A DNA stretch of 45,569 nt from Candidatus Omnitrophota bacterium (GTDB lineage Bacteria > Omnitrophota > Gorgyraeia > Duberdicusellales > 4484-171). Made by a program: the position numbers and the translations under genes. Under the pieces are notes generated by a model. It was not told where the DNA came from. It saw nothing but the letters and a program-made list of their open reading frames with translations, and did no database searches. Positions 14,569-39,979 of this stretch are shown in pieces. Position 1 is the stretch's first letter; the number at the start of each line of letters is the position of its first letter. The stretch is taken from positions 1 through 45,569 of the forward strand of contig JBAZGN010000006.1 of assembly GCA_041652815.1 (NCBI GenBank), read 5' to 3'.

Positions 14569-14589
14569 AAAATTACGTTAGATATAACC

Positions 14590-14620
14590 AAAGCCCACCT
14601 TTTAGGTGGGCTTTGTGTTT
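14590..14620 (+). terminator. Intrinsic terminator after the nikR operon
   Basis: AAAGCCCACCT-TTT-AGGTGGGCTTT followed by a T-rich run. Confidence 0.75.
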
Positions 14621-14728
14621 ATAAGACAATCTCAAGCTGGTTAAATTCGTTTCGTATGTTTGGAAATGGATAGATGTTTTTTATAATTTATTTTTTGAAA
14701 AAAGAATTAATAGTATATCTGTCTTCTT

Positions 14729-15181
14729 ATGTGGGAAGTTTACAGGAATGTCATCAGATGCTATCCAAAGATTTCTCTATCCGAAGAAAGGCTTTTGATT
14801 TATAAGGCTCAAAAAGGATCAAAGAAGAGCAAGGATAAAATTGTTTTTCATTATATTGGTTTCTTAATCTTTAGAATTCACAAAATAGTATTTCCTGAAC
14901 TGCTTCAGCGATTTGGCGAAGATTTACTTGAAGAAGCCATATTGGTTGTTTATAAAAAAATTGAAAGCTATAATCTTGATTATTGTGATAAGCAAGGTAA
15001 CCCTAAGCCTGTAAAGCTTGTTTCTTATATTTGGAAACGAATCGATGGGTTTATAATTGATTCTTTGAAGAAAGAATTGGTTGAATCAAACTATTACAAC
15101 CAGTACAGTGAATATAGTATCAAAAATACAGATTTATCGCTGATGTCCACGTCAAGAGAGGTAGACAATGCTATCTCTTAA
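14729..15181 (+). CDS. Sigma70 region 1.2/2-like protein lacking region 4
   Basis: LSEERLLIYKAQKG, EDLLEEAIL...KIESYN, KLVSYIWKRI align by eye to sigma regions 1.2/2; only 150 aa. Confidence 0.6.
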   Translation: MWEVYRNVIRCYPKISLSEERLLIYKAQKGSKKSKDKIVFHYIGFLIFRIHKIVFPELLQRFGEDLLEEAILVVYKKIESYNLDYCDKQGNPKPVKLVSYIWKRIDGFIIDSLKKELVESNYYNQYSEYSIKNTDLSLMSTSREVDNAIS

Positions 15182-15216
15182 TAGCTCAATGGATTGCAGA
15201 TTTTTCACCCAAAAAC

Positions 15217-15353
15217 AACCGGACAAAACGGACAAATTAGCGAGGGATTAACCTCTCTAATCCGCGAATTTCTTGATAATCACCCTATTTAGCCCTATAA
15301 TACATACTTGTAGATAGAGAGAGGTTTCCCCTCGTGGAATACGACTGGGACCC
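15217..15353 (+). repeat. Promoter-bearing dispersed repeat, copy A
   Basis: AACCGGACAAAACGGACA; arm CGAGGGATTAACCTCTCT 15241-58; TTGATA-N17-TATAAT 15273-15301; arm AGAGAGGTTTCCCCTCG 15318-34; GGGACCC. Confidence 0.9.
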
Positions 15354-18139: not shown

Positions 18140-18360
18140 TGCTACAAAATGTCCACCTTTATAGGGTGGACATTTTGTAGCAATTTTCCGTATAAAGAGT
18201 TACGTAATTTCTATCCAAAAACGAGCGGACAAATTGGACAATTTAGCGAGGAAAATAACCTTTCTAAAATGCGAATTTCTTGATAATCACACTATTTAGT
18301 CCTATAATGCATACATATAGATACCGAGAGGTTTCTTCTTGACAAATAATAGGGGGACCC
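18140..18360 (+). repeat. Promoter-bearing dispersed repeat, copy B, with perfect 18 bp hairpin
   Basis: TGCTACAAAATGTCCACC-N7-GGTGGACATTTTGTAGCA 18140-82; GGACA x2; TTGATA-N17-TATAAT 18280-18308; GAGAGGTTTC..GGGACCC. Confidence 0.88.
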
Positions 18361-19366: not shown

Positions 19367-19438
19367 GAGTGTGACTGGAAACTGCCTGAATTACTGCCCG
19401 GTGCAAAAATTATATCTGTTTTTTGTAGCTTCCCGCAC

Positions 19439-19637
19439 AATGTCCACCTTTAAGAGGTGGACATTATATATCTGACTGAAGCCAAAAGAATTACAGTATT
19501 TTGTCCCCGCAATTACCGGACATTCCGGACAAATTACGCGAGGGAATACCTCTCTAAAACCCAAATATATTGCCATAACGCCGTATTGCCTATATAATCC
19601 TTCTATATAAATAGCGAGAGGTTTCGAGGAGGATCCC
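19439..19637 (+). repeat. Promoter-bearing dispersed repeat, copy C
   Basis: AATGTCCACCT-N5-AGGTGGACATT 19439-65; TTGCCA-N17-TATAAT 19570-98; 19514-19625 matches copy D at 111/112 nt. Confidence 0.9.
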
Positions 19638-19707
19638 AGTTTTAGAGAAAAGTCACAAAAAACGAATTTGTATATTATATGTTGGCCATAATCAAGGAGG
19701 AAAATGG

Positions 19708-21465: not shown

Positions 21466-21618
21466 ATACCGCCTCTTCTGGCTTCGCCGGGCTATCAGCA
21501 CCGGTTTCTTATTCCAAAAACATCGTGATATTTATAGCATAGCCAAATTTGTATGGTATTTGTCCACGAAGATGTTTCCGCCGTCTTTACGCCCGCAACA
21601 AAAATTCAAACCAAAAAA

Positions 21619-21755
21619 TACCGGACATTCCGGACAAATTACGCGAGGGAATATCTCTCTAAAACCCAAATATATTGCCATAACGCCGTATTGCCTATAT
21701 AATCCTTCTATATAAATAGCGAGAGGTTTCCCCTTGTGGAATATGAGTGGGACCC
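21619..21755 (+). repeat. Promoter-bearing dispersed repeat, copy D
   Basis: 112 nt (21619-21730) match copy C with one mismatch; right hairpin CTTGT-GGAAT-ATGAG, GGGACCC. Confidence 0.9.
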
Positions 21756-26158: not shown

Positions 26159-27660
26159 TACTTAAGCCTCACTTAAGCGACATTAAAAATATAGGCTATT
26201 ATCTGGGCAGGATAATTCTTGGTATCGGTTTTACAATGTTCTTGCCGTTCATAGCAGGGCTTATTCTGTTTAAAGAATCTAATCCGGCATTTGATTTCTT
26301 AATTAGTGCCAGTATTACCATATTCATTGGTTTGATTTTAAGTTGGTTATGTAAAACCGATAAAAACTTACATACAGGACCGGCCATGGTCGTGATTGCT
26401 TCTTCGTGGTTGGCGGCAATGGCTCTTAGCGCTATACCGTTAATTCTTAGCGGCCACTATAAATCATTTCTTGATGCTTGCTTTGAGACTATGTCCGGTT
26501 TTACTACAACTGGGCTAACTCTTGTGCAAGATTTAGATCATCTTTCACGAACGCATAACCTATGGCGTCATTTAGGGCCTTTTTTGGGAGGACAAGGAAT
26601 AGCTATTATCGCGATTACATTTTTACTCGGCGGTACCAACGGTTCACTGAATTTATATCTCGGAGAAGGTCGTGACGAAAAATTAGTTCCTAATGTAATG
26701 CATACAGCACGTTTTATTTGGGCTATTAGTATAGCATATTTGATTTTAGGAACTATTGTTTTGGGGCTGATAGGGATGTCTATAGGATTAAAGCCGCAAA
26801 GTGCGTTTTTCCATGCCATCTGCATATTTATGGCCGGATTTGATACGGCAGGTTTTGCTCCTCAGTCAACTAATATCCTTTACTATCACAGCCTGATATT
26901 TGAAATCGCCACAATTTTCTTTATGGTTATGGGATCTCTCAATTTTAATTTGCATTATCAGATTTGGACAGGAAATTTCAAAGAAATATGGAAAAATATA
27001 GAAACGCGGACATTTTTGCTTATACTCATGATTGTTTCTTTGATTGTCATGGCCGGATTAAAACGATTGGGAGTCTATTCGGATGGGGTGATGCTATTTC
27101 GTAAGGGGTTTTATCAGATTATTTCGGGTCAAACCACAACCGGATATGTAACGATATACGCCCAGCAATTTTTTAAAGAGTGGGGGGATTTAGCTTTAAC
27201 CGGAATTATTATCGCTATGGCATCGGGAGGATGTGTGTGTTCTACGGCAGGCGGCATTAAAATGTTACGTATAGGAATTATTTATAAGGCATTAAGACAA
27301 GATATAAAAAGTTTTATGCTTCCGCCAAAAGCCGTTTTTGTACAAAAGTTTCATCATATAAAAACTATTCTTGTAGAAGATAAACAAGTACGAGCAGTAT
27401 TAATTGTTACCATGGGATATTTTTTTCTTTATGGATTGGGTACTCTTATAGGTGTAGTGCTGGGATATCCTTTTCTGGAATCTCTTTTTGAATCAACTTC
27501 TGCAGCTGGCAACGTTGGGCTCTCCTGTGGCATAACTGATGCAAGTATGCCGGTAATTTTAAAAATCACCTACATCATTGAAATGTGGGCCGGCAGGTTG
27601 GAGCTGATGTCGGTTTTTGCGCTTGCTGGATTTTTCGTGTCTTTAGTGAAGGGGAAATAA
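26155..27660 (+). CDS. trkH: TrkH-family potassium uptake membrane protein
   Basis: FETMSGFTTTG, AGFDTAGF, GQTTTGY, SAAGNVGLS pore loops; STAGGIKMLR. Confidence 0.92.
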   Translation: MILKPHLSDIKNIGYYLGRIILGIGFTMFLPFIAGLILFKESNPAFDFLISASITIFIGLILSWLCKTDKNLHTGPAMVVIASSWLAAMALSAIPLILSGHYKSFLDACFETMSGFTTTGLTLVQDLDHLSRTHNLWRHLGPFLGGQGIAIIAITFLLGGTNGSLNLYLGEGRDEKLVPNVMHTARFIWAISIAYLILGTIVLGLIGMSIGLKPQSAFFHAICIFMAGFDTAGFAPQSTNILYYHSLIFEIATIFFMVMGSLNFNLHYQIWTGNFKEIWKNIETRTFLLILMIVSLIVMAGLKRLGVYSDGVMLFRKGFYQIISGQTTTGYVTIYAQQFFKEWGDLALTGIIIAMASGGCVCSTAGGIKMLRIGIIYKALRQDIKSFMLPPKAVFVQKFHHIKTILVEDKQVRAVLIVTMGYFFLYGLGTLIGVVLGYPFLESLFESTSAAGNVGLSCGITDASMPVILKITYIIEMWAGRLELMSVFALAGFFVSLVKGK

Positions 27661-27662
27661 AA

Positions 27663-28154
27663 ATGAAAAAAGTTGTTCTGTCCGGCATATTTTTTATGTG
27701 GCTTATTCTTTTGAGCTATAACTGCCATGCTCAAGCGATGGTGAGCTTAGACTTACTGAATAATACTAAAAAGTATGATGGTAAGAAAGTTCTTTATAAA
27801 GGTGAAGTTGTAGGCGACATTATGATGCGCGCCGATCATGTTTGGTTGCACGTGAATGATGGTAATATTGCGATTGGCATCTGGGCTTCAAATGCTTTAA
27901 CTAAAAATATTTCTTATGCGGGGGATTATCAAAAAAGAGGAGATATCGTAGAGGTCTCCGGAACATTTCATCGCAGTTGTGCGGAGCATGGAGGCGATCT
28001 TGATATCCATGCTGACATTATAAAGATAATTACCTCCGGAGCCATTGTTATTAAACCAATTAATAACAAAAAGATTTACCTAGGGGTGGGTCTGTTAATA
28101 ATAGTTCTATTGTTGTATGTATTAAAAAAGTTTTTCCAAAACAAAAAACAATAA
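27663..28154 (+). CDS. Exported OB-fold-like protein with C-terminal TM
   Basis: YDGKKVLYKGEVVGD, GDIVEVSGTF; ATG 27663. Confidence 0.6.
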   Translation: MKKVVLSGIFFMWLILLSYNCHAQAMVSLDLLNNTKKYDGKKVLYKGEVVGDIMMRADHVWLHVNDGNIAIGIWASNALTKNISYAGDYQKRGDIVEVSGTFHRSCAEHGGDLDIHADIIKIITSGAIVIKPINNKKIYLGVGLLIIVLLLYVLKKFFQNKKQ

Positions 28155-28161
28155 TTCCGCT

Positions 28162-28251
28162 TATTACAATCAATATAATGAATACAGCATCAAAGGAACG
28201 GATTTATCGTCAATGTCCAGCTTAACGGAGGCAGATATTCCTATCCTATAA
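28162..28251 (+). pseudogene. 3' remnant of the sigma-like gene
   Basis: YYNQYNEYSIKGTDLSSMSSLTEADIPIL* matches the 14729 C-terminus YYNQYSEYSIKNTDLSLMSTSREVDNAIS*. Confidence 0.85.
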
Positions 28252-28286
28252 CAGTACAATAATTTGCATAATTTCCAGCCCAAAAT

Positions 28287-28424
28287 AACCGGACAAAGCG
28301 GACAACTTTAGCGAGGGAATACCTCTCTAAAACCCAAATATCTTGCCACAACACCACATTGCCTATATAATTCTTCTATATAAATAAAGAGAGGTTTCCC
28401 CTCGCGGAATACGAGTGGGGCCCC
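28287..28424 (+). repeat. Promoter-bearing dispersed repeat, copy H
   Basis: Arms 28311-28 and 28388-405 are 16/18 complementary; TTGCCA-N17-TATAAT 28343-71. Confidence 0.9.
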
Positions 28425-34101: not shown

Positions 34102-34116
34102 GTAAGTGGGTGCAGA

Positions 34117-34322
34117 TGTCTACCTAAGAGAGACTGTCATTTTATATCTATCTACGCCTCAAATAATTACTAAATTTTCAGCCAAAAACAACCGAACAAA
34201 CGGACATTTTCACGAGAGAATAATCTCTCTGAATTACGGATTTCTTGATAATCGCCGTATTTAGCACTATAATGCATACCTATAAAAAGCGAGAGGTTTC
34301 CCCTTGTGGATTTTTCTGCTCT
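34117..34322 (+). repeat. Repeat copy J with decayed sigma-like gene tail
   Basis: GATGTCTACCTAAGAGAG aligns to the sigma-like 3' end; TTGATA-N17-TATAAT 34245-73; GAGAGGTTTCCCCTTGTGGA. Confidence 0.85.
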
Positions 34323-34411: not shown

Positions 34412-34708
34412 ATGTCTAGGCCTTGCCGGTGTAGAAGAATAAAATGCAATCCCGACACAAATTATTTTAAGCCTCGCGGTATCCCTTTGGATATGCTTGA
34501 AGAGGTGAATCTTACCCTGGATGAATTAGAGGCAGTCAGGCTTGCGGATTTTGATGGCCTTTATCAGGAAGACGCAGCTAAAAAAATGGATGTTTCCCGG
34601 CAGACCTTCGGTAATATTATAAATTCTGCTCACAAAAAGATAGCGGATGTTCTTTTAAACGCCAAAGCATTAAAGATAGAAGGCGGAACTGTTAAAAAGG
34701 TGAGGTAA
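34412..34708 (+). CDS. DUF134-family putative DNA-binding protein
   Basis: MSRPCRCRRI, YFKPRGIP, ELEAVRLAD, QEDAAKKMDVSRQTF. Confidence 0.9.
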   Translation: MSRPCRCRRIKCNPDTNYFKPRGIPLDMLEEVNLTLDELEAVRLADFDGLYQEDAAKKMDVSRQTFGNIINSAHKKIADVLLNAKALKIEGGTVKKVR

Positions 34709-35305
34709 ATGAGTAATTTAATAAAACAGGATCAAGATAGGCTTAAACTATTCAAAAAGTATGGTTACGATATTCCTAAAGCTAGGAAATTCATTCTTAC
34801 GAAAGCCAAAATTTCAGAAGGGAAAATTCTTGAAGTTGGTACAGGCCGTGGATACATGACGGCTGTTTTGGCTAAGAGCGGTTTGAAGATAGTTTCAATT
34901 GACCTGGACAGTAAGGCTCAAAATGCAGCCAAGCTAAAGCTTAAAAGCCTTAAACTTGATAAATATGTATCTCTTAAGAACATGAATGCCGAAAGGTTAA
35001 AATATAAAGATAACTCATATGATTGCGTTATTTCAGTAAATTTTATTCATCATGCAAATAATCCGGCTAAATGCTTAAAGGAAATGGCAAGGGTAATGAA
35101 AGATAAACTTATTATTGCTGATTTGAATAAGCGAGGCGAGAGGATTATGGAAAAAGTGCATGCTTTGGATGGGCATAAACATGTGGTGTCTAAAATGTCA
35201 TTGCCGGACGTAAAAGAATATTTAGAGAAAGCAGGATTGGTTGTTGAGGTTTATAAGGATGTTTGTCAAACTATTATTATAGCTAAAAGAGGAGGATTAA
35301 AATGA
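34709..35305 (+). CDS. Class I SAM-dependent methyltransferase (paralog of 343..954)
   Basis: ILEVGTGRG, VNFIHH; N-terminal YGYDIPKARKFI parallels FGCDIDKEREFI. Confidence 0.85.
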   Translation: MSNLIKQDQDRLKLFKKYGYDIPKARKFILTKAKISEGKILEVGTGRGYMTAVLAKSGLKIVSIDLDSKAQNAAKLKLKSLKLDKYVSLKNMNAERLKYKDNSYDCVISVNFIHHANNPAKCLKEMARVMKDKLIIADLNKRGERIMEKVHALDGHKHVVSKMSLPDVKEYLEKAGLVVEVYKDVCQTIIIAKRGGLK

Positions 35306-35667
35306 AAATTTGTATTCCAACAGAAACAAATGAAGGCAAGAACGCGGTAGTTTTTGAACATTTCGGCAGCGCGCCGTATTTTACCATCGTTGATACAGAG
35401 AAAGATTCTGTCGATATAATTGATAATGCAAATCAACATCATGCGCATGGTATGTGTCAGCCAATGAATGCGTTAACGGGAAAGTCGATTGACGCTGTAG
35501 TTACTGCTGGGATGGGTGGCCGGGCAGTTCAAAAGCTTAATGAAGGCGGGATTAAGGTTTATCGAGCTATCCAGGGAACGGTTACGGATATTGTCAGTCA
35601 GTTCACCAAAGGCGGACTTGAGGAGATAACCATAGATAATGCTTGTTCTCAGCACGGCTGCCATTAG
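35302..35667 (+). CDS. NifB/NifX-family (COG1433-like) metal-cluster-binding protein
   Basis: HFGSAPYF, HHAHGMC, GMGGRA, C-terminal CSQHGCH. Confidence 0.88.
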   Translation: MKICIPTETNEGKNAVVFEHFGSAPYFTIVDTEKDSVDIIDNANQHHAHGMCQPMNALTGKSIDAVVTAGMGGRAVQKLNEGGIKVYRAIQGTVTDIVSQFTKGGLEEITIDNACSQHGCH

Positions 35668-39609: not shown

Positions 39610-39823
39610 GCTTTGGCGGTTTTTGGTATCAATTCATATAGCTTTTACGCTATAGTTAAGGCCATTAACCGATGCGCAGGTGTTAATAATTTATTTAATG
39701 CTTCGCTATCTTTCAATAAAAGACATTCAAATGGATAAAAACAAAGTTTTATTTGTCCATGTGTATAATTCAGCATGTGACCAAATAGTCGATGTCCGGT
39801 GTTTTGAACCAGATAAAACATAA
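39610..39823 (+). pseudogene. Decayed acr3 C-terminus plus arsC N-terminus
   Basis: ALAVFGINS..[frameshift]RPLTDAQVLI..[frameshift]FNASLSFNKR resembles the Acr3 end; MDKNKVLFVHVYNSACDQI (39731-39823) resembles the ArsC start. Confidence 0.6.
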
Positions 39824-39863
39824 CTATTTAGCTTCAAAAGAGTTAGACGATTTCTGGGTAAAA

Positions 39864-39979
39864 ATAACCGGACAAATAGAACAAATTTAGCGAGAGGATA
39901 TTTCTCAAATTTACCAATAGCTGCCTACGGAGAGGATGCCCCCTCTCGTGGATTATGTCTGCCCCTGGTGAGAGGAGTC
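39864..39979 (+). repeat. Hybrid repeat copy K (type I left part + type II right part, no type I promoter)
   Basis: AATAACCGGACAAATAGAACAAATTTAGCGAGAGG joined to AGCTG..GGAGAGGATGCCCCCTCTCGTGGATTATGTCTG..GGAGTC. Confidence 0.75.

Follow-up and report, generated by a model that had tools for sequence, protein, structure and literature searches.

A stand-alone sigma domain-2 gene of Omnitrophota and the 103-nt intergenic unit that adjoins it

The window analyzed here is a 45,569-nt stretch of DNA from a Candidatus Omnitrophota bacterium (GenBank assembly GCA_041652815.1, contig JBAZGN010000006.1) and is the entire contig C6 of a 2.0-Mb, 7-contig genome. The gene under study is an open reading frame (ORF) of 150 amino acids at 14729-15181 on the + strand, taken from the ORF list of the window. 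It encodes a protein whose residues 1-120 have the sequence and the predicted fold of sigma regions 1.2-2.4, and we refer to it as half-sigma. Its 3′ end runs into the first of several copies of a short intergenic repeat, which we refer to as the unit. The features of the locus are as follows.

14589-14615, + strand: intrinsic-terminator-like hairpin at the end of the upstream NikR/porin/small-membrane-protein operon (from the terminator scan, a stem of 12 bp with 7 G-C pairs and a tail rich in T).
14660-14687, + strand: sigma-70-type promoter-like site for the half-sigma gene, TTGGAA-16-TATAAT (promoter scan, 10/12, consensus match only).
14729-15088, + strand: half-sigma residues 1-120, predicted sigma domain 2 (regions 1.2 and 2.1-2.4) with a conserved 8-residue insertion between regions 2.2 and 2.3 (AlphaFold2, Foldseek, profile match).
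15089-15139, + strand: half-sigma residues 121-137, a low-confidence linker under weak protein-level constraint (predicted local distance difference test score, pLDDT, 41-56; codon-position identity 0.85/0.76/0.61).
15140-15181, + strand: half-sigma residues 138-150 and stop codon, a tail from the first 40 nt of unit A (unit model start 15142).
15142-15241, + strand: unit A (unit model R1, 74.3 bits, E 3e-22), with the inverted pair TGTCC 15144-15148 / AGACA 15163-15167, the IHF-consensus-like TCAATGGATTG at 15186-15196 and the direct pair GGACA at 15221-15225 and 15230-15234.
15240-15353, + strand: module 3′ of unit A (promoter scan, repeat families D2-D5, alignment of module copies), made up of a left arm (15240-15260), a promoter TTGATA-17-TATAAT (15273-15301, 11/12 matches) and a leader arm with hairpins (15317-15353).

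The ORF at 14729-15181 is a real, intact and conserved gene. A search of 5.8 billion proteins returned 891 homologues of about 150 amino acids; the best 120 of the 891 were 65-97% identical and nearly all 139-160 amino acids long, and among the homologues listed the lengths ran from 131 to 178 amino acids, all without a Pfam domain. Part of the homologues carry the JGI label “specialized sigma subunit” and the other labels read “hypothetical”. When a profile was searched against 1.84 billion cluster representatives, just 167 clusters were obtained, and the full-length ones did not exceed 160 amino acids. The family occurs in Omnitrophota and in metagenome-assembled genomes (MAGs) labelled Elusimicrobia and neighboring phyla, and identity within it falls to 44% over several candidate phyla. 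In the core of nine unit-carrying genes, identity by codon position was 0.74/0.82/0.51 and 0.84/0.93/0.55, a pattern that indicates purifying selection. It is the hundreds of homologues of similar length, together with this codon pattern, that identify the gene as intact and conserved.

Recognition of the protein as a sigma domain came from profiles rather than from single family models. The Pfam Sigma70_r2 model (PF04542) matched half-sigma below threshold (12.7 bits against a cut-off of 24), as it did 17 of 24 family members (best member E 3e-4), and TIGR02937 scored 15.3 bits against a cut-off of 42.9. The NCBIfam matches were weak and below cut-off; all were to sigma families except one to tyramine-glutamate ligase, on P0124. 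Searched against the PDB, a profile built from the family only (A5) matched sigma F (1l0o_C) at E 0.001, with residues 17-113 aligned to residues 12-97 of sigma F, and RpoH at E 0.023; the alignment with sigma F placed an 8-residue insertion in the family between regions 2.2 and 2.3. A second profile (A2) reached the full-length sigmas P0260, P0262 and P0265 at E ~5e-6 to 1e-5 among the 1.84 billion representatives, and its farthest matches were ordinary sigmas with Pfam region-2/-3/-4 or extracytoplasmic function (ECF) sigma matches.

The predicted structure agrees with these matches. With a more diverse alignment, AlphaFold2 returned a model with a mean pLDDT of 85.7; residues 1-120 scored above 90, and residues 121-150 scored low and are predicted to be disordered. 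In a Foldseek comparison with the PDB the top 50 matches were all sigma factors, with a probability of ~1.0 for the leading ranks and 0.77-1.00 overall; TMq was ~0.55, and the template-modelling (TM) score reached 0.65-0.70 when normalized to the isolated region 2 of sigma E (2map, 4lup). Annotated phage sigma factors made up most of the top-ranked fold matches in a viral structure library. The best-conserved positions were R21/L23/I24/A27 (regions 1.2/2.1), D65/L67/E69 (region 2.2) and Y100/W102/K103/I105 (regions 2.3/2.4). D65, L67, E69, Y100, W102 and K103 were invariant, and the region 2.2 motif D65-L-L-E-E69 was conserved.

The original prediction, made from the letters alone, had described a protein with only sigma region 1.2/2-like sequence and had proposed comparison with sigma domain 2. 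Both the profiles and the predicted fold bear it out, and no region-4 signal accompanies them: the r4 and r4_2 models, in a six-frame search of the genome, found no match at or 3′ of the half-sigma gene, where the following 350 nt consist of unit, promoter and leader. It had also been considered that the homologues might be frameshifted or pseudogenized full-length sigmas. This can be set aside, as the homologues are short, with reading frames of 113-193 amino acids and region 4 in none of the 79 species-representative loci, and no six-frame r4 match lies downstream. From its sequence, half-sigma is thus best described as a genuine half-sigma and not as a complete sigma-70-family factor, and the family as uncharacterized stand-alone sigma domain-2 proteins of ~130-160 amino acids.

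The end of the gene has a different origin. Unit A starts 40 nt before the half-sigma stop codon and so covers the last 13 codons and the stop, and in every 150-amino-acid homologue with a unit the unit starts at -39 or -40 relative to the stop. Over codons 137-150 of the same nine genes, identity by codon position was 0.75/0.71/0.74, with no relaxation at the third position; since periodicity is lacking, the last 13 codons are constrained as DNA and not as protein. Members that end earlier have the hairpin just 3′ of the stop (L037 and L043 at +3, L054 at +49). Unrelated ORFs in other genomes (L082 and L084) also read into the hairpin, ending in “...MSTFKGADIHNSR” and “...MSRTKGVDIPIS”, and have gained an MS..D..IS tail by reading into the unit. 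These observations show that the last 13 codons of half-sigma are supplied by a widespread intergenic unit, and that the unit is not a decayed piece of the gene.

L082 and L084 (genomes G229 and G262) are in themselves a second, unrelated family of small ORFs, with ends ...KKERQKAAQDGGLAPMSTFKGADIHNSR and ...KEECQKAAENGDRPTMSRTKGVDIPIS, that runs into the hairpin of the unit. More than one gene family thus receives its C-terminus and stop codon from the unit.

The unit was defined from an alignment of the window copies with DNA 3′ of homologous genes in other genomes. Its length is 102-104 nt in 16 of 18 aligned copies (one is 93 nt long and one was trimmed before alignment), and its architecture is TGTCC-N13/14-GGACA, ~52 nt, then GGACA-N4-GGACA. 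At its center lies a core TCAAN4TTR, which we take to be the IHF consensus core. This core was observed in 21 of 55 distinct full-length units, against 1.2 expected, and a relaxed form at a fixed offset in 31 of the 55. Such an architecture suggests a bent nucleoprotein complex. The further copies placed by the unit model are listed next, along with one gene remnant identified by alignment with the half-sigma gene.

18147-18247, + strand: unit B; a perfect hairpin of 18 bp occupies 18140-18182.
19438-19537, + strand: unit C (E 1e-18).
21599-21642, + strand: unit D, 3′ part only (model positions 58-101).
28162-28245, + strand: remnant of a second half-sigma gene, codons 122-149, from 8 nt after the stop of ORF 27585-28154 into unit H.
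28211-28310, + strand: unit H (unit model R1, 74.1 bits).
34115-34212, + strand: unit J, 5′ of the DUF134 gene 34412-34708 (E 2e-18).
39790-39889, + strand: unit K.

The window thus holds six full units and one 3′ half, all on the + strand and all downstream of the half-sigma gene, and the repeats 3′ of this gene recur over 15-42 kb of the window. The hairpin noted at 15143-15169 in the 3′ end of the gene is present, but in unit A it is degenerate (-9.2 kcal/mol, z -0.9); the folding energy was -26.3 kcal/mol in copy B and -17.4 kcal/mol in copy C. Inspection by eye found a T-rich stretch after the hairpin, as in intrinsic terminators, in copy B and in several other genomes. All inspected copies lie between co-directional genes, and most have on their 3′ side a sigma-70 promoter close to consensus and then a leader that is conserved.

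The promoter segments next to the units have features of their own. In copy H, 18-nt arms (28311-28328 and 28388-28405, 89% complementary) bracket a 59-bp promoter segment and could serve as a paired operator, fold into two hairpins or act as an inversion switch; arm-like sequences (GCGAGGG..CCTCTCT / GAGAGG..CCCTCG) flank further module promoters, and an inverted-repeat scan detected no such arms around the promoter of copy A. Copies C and D of the promoter module (19494-19650 and 21599-21755) share long near-identical stretches over the part covered by the alignment and bracket an ankyrin gene, copy D being without the 5′ half of the unit. A recent duplication, or recombination through the module, would explain such a pattern.

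According to the original prediction, the tails of the half-sigma gene recur before other repeat copies. For copy H this proved correct: 15092-15175 and 28162-28245 align without gaps over 84 nt at 74% identity (z = 16, 0/300 shuffles), and tblastn found 66% identity over residues 119-147 (E 2.6e-5). Among the window copies, homology 5′ of the unit was confined to copy H (nhmmer E 2.5e-5). In the 17 codons 5′ of this unit the differing codons are 6 synonymous and 3 non-synonymous, and the remnant shares “YYNQY.EYSIK” with the window gene and not the “YYDRYSGYALK” of other genomes. In line with the first proposal, copy H holds what remains of a second gene copy, best read as a paralogue that was once functional and has since lost its 5′ part. 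For copies C and J, a likeness to the last ~13 codons does exist, from the first positions of the unit model onward, but the pairwise alignment covers only 22-25 nt around the hairpin (z 3.8); as the unit supplies the tail, this likeness is unit homology and not the decay of gene tails. Gene remnants were sought 5′ of the other window units and of units in other genomes, and only H was detected. A by-eye resemblance to a gene remnant at L073 did not reach E 10 and was dropped. Other genomes carry two to four gene copies and assorted fragments.

One possibility is that half-sigma itself is a decaying relic, a sigma gene truncated by insertion of the unit and no longer functional. Gene fragments and internal-stop copies in several genomes, the remnant at copy H and the element-derived tail would all fit. 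However, the hundreds of intact copies of similar length, spread over several candidate phyla down to 44% identity, and the strong purifying selection on the core argue against it, and distant members end before the unit or have no unit, so that the short length predates the fusion. This explanation is largely refuted, and we find it scarcely credible.

The distributions of gene and unit were compared over 301 evenly sampled Omnitrophota genomes. The gene was present in 39 of them, none being another genome of the window's own family or order, while the unit was present in 99, with up to 13 copies per genome. Units occurred in 23 of the 39 gene-positive genomes (59%) and in 76 of the 262 gene-negative ones (29%). 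The gene-less genomes richest in units were G259 (13 units), G031 (11) and G191 (9); when unit-rich gene-less genomes were searched again with a broader profile, two weak hits in frames of 374-394 amino acids and one (E 0.24) in a 182-amino-acid frame were obtained, none of them a convincing family member. The absence of the gene from MAGs may be a binning artefact; a co-presence of 23% is far from obligatory pairing. Because 76 gene-less genomes carry it, the unit is neither a truncated copy of the gene nor dependent on it. It is an autonomous, phylum-wide intergenic element, and half-sigma is its frequent neighbor and not an obligatory factor. This overturns the idea that a mobile unit once included the gene and that most copies are 5′-truncated: the hairpin is the native 5′ end of an element of fixed length, 103 nt. 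That the gene has spread horizontally is suggested by its patchy distribution combined with identities of 65-77% between members from different classes of the phylum.

Nevertheless, the linkage of gene and unit is far beyond chance. The unit lies directly 3′ of the gene in at least 13 sampled genomes and in ~18 of the 79 species loci, at offsets of -69 to +49 nt, and three genomes (G177, G266 and G220) have a unit on the other side, 240-420 nt 5′ of the gene or of a fragment of it; in G177 a module leader is visible just before the gene. The expectation that the repeat always follows the homologues therefore holds as physical linkage in many genomes and fails as a rule, as 61 of the 79 loci have no unit adjoining the 3′ end of the gene; in a few of these a unit is found 0.6-6 kb off.

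These numbers bear on a second possibility, that half-sigma is a factor dedicated to the unit, reading the TGTCC/GGACA boxes alone or on RNA polymerase and controlling termination at the hairpin or the adjacent promoter. The adjacencies on both sides of the gene, the enrichment of units in gene-positive genomes and the position of all six full window units downstream of the gene are in keeping with this, and TGTC is similar to the GTC core found in the -10 elements of ECF sigmas. This possibility is difficult to reconcile with the 76 gene-less genomes that carry units, with the outcome of the broader search in the richest of them, and with the 16 of 39 gene-positive genomes that have no nearby unit. 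In addition, the module promoter is near-consensus sigma-70 (11/12), for which no alternative sigma is needed, and the gene-unit junctions are not independent events, since many descend from one ancestral fusion. A factor binding the GGACA or arm sites, as first envisaged, is disfavored by these gene-less genomes, and we consider such a dedicated role quite improbable. The use of the unit as a mark of a half-sigma regulon is weakened by the same gene-less, unit-rich genomes.

It could also be speculated that half-sigma works as a boundary factor derived from a sigma, which would use region 2.2 to dock on RNA polymerase and its conserved enlarged loop and a YxWKR motif to read the TGTCC boxes as -10-like non-template elements; we give this little chance of being correct. 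The same low expectation attaches to its second part, in which such a factor would set the fate of polymerase at the unit, be it a stop at the hairpin, a pause or a new initiation, the units of gene-less genomes remaining in a default state. If true, the factor would be an optional, island-borne regulator laid over a phylum-wide cassette of terminator, IHF-like site and promoter.

We also considered what the neighboring genes suggest. Upstream of half-sigma the window encodes Fur, DsbD, ZnuABC, NikR, an OprB porin and two small membrane proteins; downstream lie genes for proteins with Sel1, HEAT and ankyrin repeats, for a two-component system and for TrkH, as well as a CsoR operon, DUF134 and others. 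Every long gene of the window is on the + strand. The content is one of cellular metal-homeostasis and envelope genes, with no phage genes among those annotated, and an Rfam scan of the whole window found no family match. In the other loci, the unit-fused subfamily lies mostly beside metal and metalloid homeostasis genes (ZnuABC, NikR-OprB-CbiMNQO or small membrane proteins, ArsC/ACR3, Fur, DUF134), and more distant members have as neighbors Fic-type proteins, HEPN/MNT, AbiE, recombinases of the tyrosine and serine types and a variety of ion transporters.

A Fic-type protein of ~350 amino acids was the commonest neighbor, found in 16 of the 79 loci (L088-L166) on either side and on either strand, followed by HEPN/MNT pairs, GIY-YIG and recombinase genes. 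These neighbors point to a defense or mobile-island habitat.

The first three loci (ZnuABC, NikR-OprB-CbiMNQO) had prompted the idea of a metal-starvation sigma, always the last gene of a metal-uptake operon. The context is true for ~8 of 11 members of the unit-fused subfamily, but wider sampling brought in ACR3/ArsC, CLC, a Na/H exchanger, TauE, HEPN/MNT, AbiE, Fic, integrase and serine recombinase, and in the window a terminator and a separate promoter part the metal operon from half-sigma. We have kept the idea only as a neighborhood tendency.

Another possibility is that half-sigma is part of a split sigma whose unlinked partner is a region-4-like protein such as DUF134. The window DUF134 protein (34412-34708, confirmed at E 1e-23) has weak matches to Sigma70_r4 (E 0.044) and r4_2 (E 0.008) and is preceded by unit J; moreover, DUF134 lies within 3.3 kb of half-sigma in 5 of the 79 loci by tblastn (4 of 79 by ORF clustering), once, in L151, only 65 nt downstream. 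This adjacency is rare, however, and the window DUF134 sits with a NifX-like gene. DUF134 is widespread, is present in archaea without sigma factors and is typically found beside NifX-like and Mrp/MinD Fe-S genes. The co-location probably reflects a shared metal-homeostasis neighborhood, and the chance that DUF134 is the partner seems very slim. Other candidates for a region-4-only partner in the genome were rejected: the short frames with weak r4 matches were an XRE-type helix-turn-helix protein, a second DUF134 and an excisionase-like helix-turn-helix protein.

Some related genes deserve separate mention. Two DUF134 genes (34412-34708 in the window and C5:59089-59409 in G000) have Cys-rich N-termini and weak sigma region-4 matches, and the window copy has unit J before it and a methyltransferase and the NifX-like gene (Nitro_FeMo-Co, 35302-35667) after it. 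G000 also carries two 184-amino-acid ECF sigma genes 6.7 kb apart (C1:52470-53024 and C1:59163-59717) with identical match scores, which suggests a recent duplication.

It may also be that half-sigma does not initiate transcription at all and acts as a sigma decoy, blocking the sigma-2 docking site of core RNA polymerase or titrating an anti-sigma, so that housekeeping transcription is damped when island genes are expressed. The conserved core-binding residues of region 2.2, the lack of region 4 and of a linked partner, and a neighborhood rich in toxin-antitoxin and Fic genes are compatible with such a role, and surplus alternative or split sigmas are toxic through competition, as reported for Tn916 Sig7-8. 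On the other hand, the invariant Y100, W102 and K103 and the enlarged loop would be superfluous for docking, and their conservation suggests contact with nucleic acid. We regard a decoy as unlikely.

The explanation that we favor, with moderate confidence, is that half-sigma is a minimal, -35-independent, core-RNA-polymerase-binding factor for -10-type elements or one part of a split sigma factor. Through the conserved region 2.1/2.2 helix (DLLEEA) it would dock on the beta-prime clamp helices of the core enzyme, and its invariant segment in regions 2.3/2.4 (SYIWKRIDGFIID), helped by the enlarged and conserved loop that precedes it, would contact the non-template strand of a -10-type element. 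Half-sigma would then act as a minimal initiation subunit that does without a -35 element, as T4 gp55 does; alternatively, it may supply the sigma-2 part of a split factor, the other part being encoded at a distance. It would act on promoters in the accessory regions that carry the gene, and in this reading the linkage of gene and unit reflects shared residence at transcription-unit boundaries of islands together with descent from one gene-unit junction.

Several observations weigh against this explanation. No Pfam or NCBIfam model attains its cut-off on the family, which is therefore uncatalogued. The alignment behind the better AlphaFold2 model (A4) took in three more sigma-like distant sequences, while a model from the shallow family-only alignment was uninformative (pLDDT 57), and the Foldseek E-values are modest (best 5.7e-3). 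Clustering of neighboring ORFs at the 79 loci found no conserved small helix-turn-helix or region-4 partner gene, and a promoter motif common to the family was identified on neither side of the gene. Finally, the adjacency of gene and unit is long-standing, being kept at offsets of -48 to +49 nt among members that are 52-75% identical, and its repetition hints at a functional tie that our explanation treats as linkage only.

If confirmed, the family would provide a natural test of how far a lone sigma-2 domain can recognize and melt promoters, and, should the favored reading be true, it would show how accessory DNA redirects the RNA polymerase of its host in a phylum that has no model organism in culture. 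The analysis also corrects the annotation of genes now labelled “specialized sigma subunit” or “hypothetical”. Independently of function, it offers a clear case of a repeat element that writes the C-terminus and stop codon of several unrelated genes, and tails written in this way can mislead gene callers as well as readers who infer decayed gene tails.

Both the unit and the protein have counterparts in known systems. The BIME (bacterial interspersed mosaic element) and RIP (repetitive IHF-binding palindromic) elements of enterobacteria consist of repetitive extragenic palindromic (REP) hairpins flanking an IHF site at gene 3′ ends. The unit is like them in being ~100 bp long, intergenic and placed at gene 3′ ends, with palindromic parts, an IHF-consensus-like core and many copies per genome. 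It differs in its unrelated sequence, in the direct GGACA pair that takes the place of a second REP, in the coupling of inspected copies to a downstream promoter and leader, and in that no RAYT-type transposase was identified; its IHF site is predicted from sequence.

Among sigma factors, the sigma-2 domain of ECF (group 4) sigmas, for example region 2 of E. coli sigma E (2map, 4lup), gave the best target-normalized fold agreement (TM 0.65-0.70) and shares with half-sigma the order of helices and a YxW..RI-type motif. Unlike ECF sigmas, half-sigma has no sigma-4, carries the conserved 8-residue insertion between regions 2.2 and 2.3 and scores far below the TIGR02937 and Pfam cut-offs. T4 gp55, the late sigma that works with gp33 and the sliding clamp, is likewise small and essentially region-2-like, lacks region 4 and reads a -10-type element only; a gp55-type protein appeared among the viral fold matches at rank 27 (E 0.32, weak). 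In contrast to gp55, half-sigma lies in cellular genomic islands, has no detectable sequence relation to gp55 and has neighbors among which no gp33-like or clamp-linked partner was identified, and its C-terminal tail is element-encoded and predicted to be disordered, not a demonstrated partner-binding epitope.

Sigma functions carried on small separate polypeptides are also found in SigO-RsoA of B. subtilis and in Sig7-Sig8 of Tn916, the latter on accessory, mobile DNA like half-sigma. Both pairs are encoded side by side. Two distant relatives of half-sigma, P0241 and P0264, match Pfam HTH_16 (PF12645), which we take to be the family of Tn916 Orf7-type proteins. Half-sigma differs from both pairs in holding the whole of regions 1.2-2.4 and in having no conserved adjacent partner, the latter being the lack already weighed against our favored explanation. 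In SigO-RsoA and Sig7-Sig8 region 4 is on the larger subunit, and the region-2-like one (RsoA, Sig8) is much smaller. These pairs, with gp55/gp33 and SPO1 gp33/gp34, are the precedents for sigma-2-only or split sigmas, Tn916 Sig7-8 being the most recent (PMC7826278; bioRxiv 10.64898/2026.10.01.756105).

The half-sigma family would extend this set with hundreds of cellular members that possess complete regions 1.2-2.4 and no linked region 4. To our knowledge, stand-alone sigma region-2 proteins come from few systems only, namely T4 gp55, SPO1 gp34, RsoA and now Tn916 Sig8.

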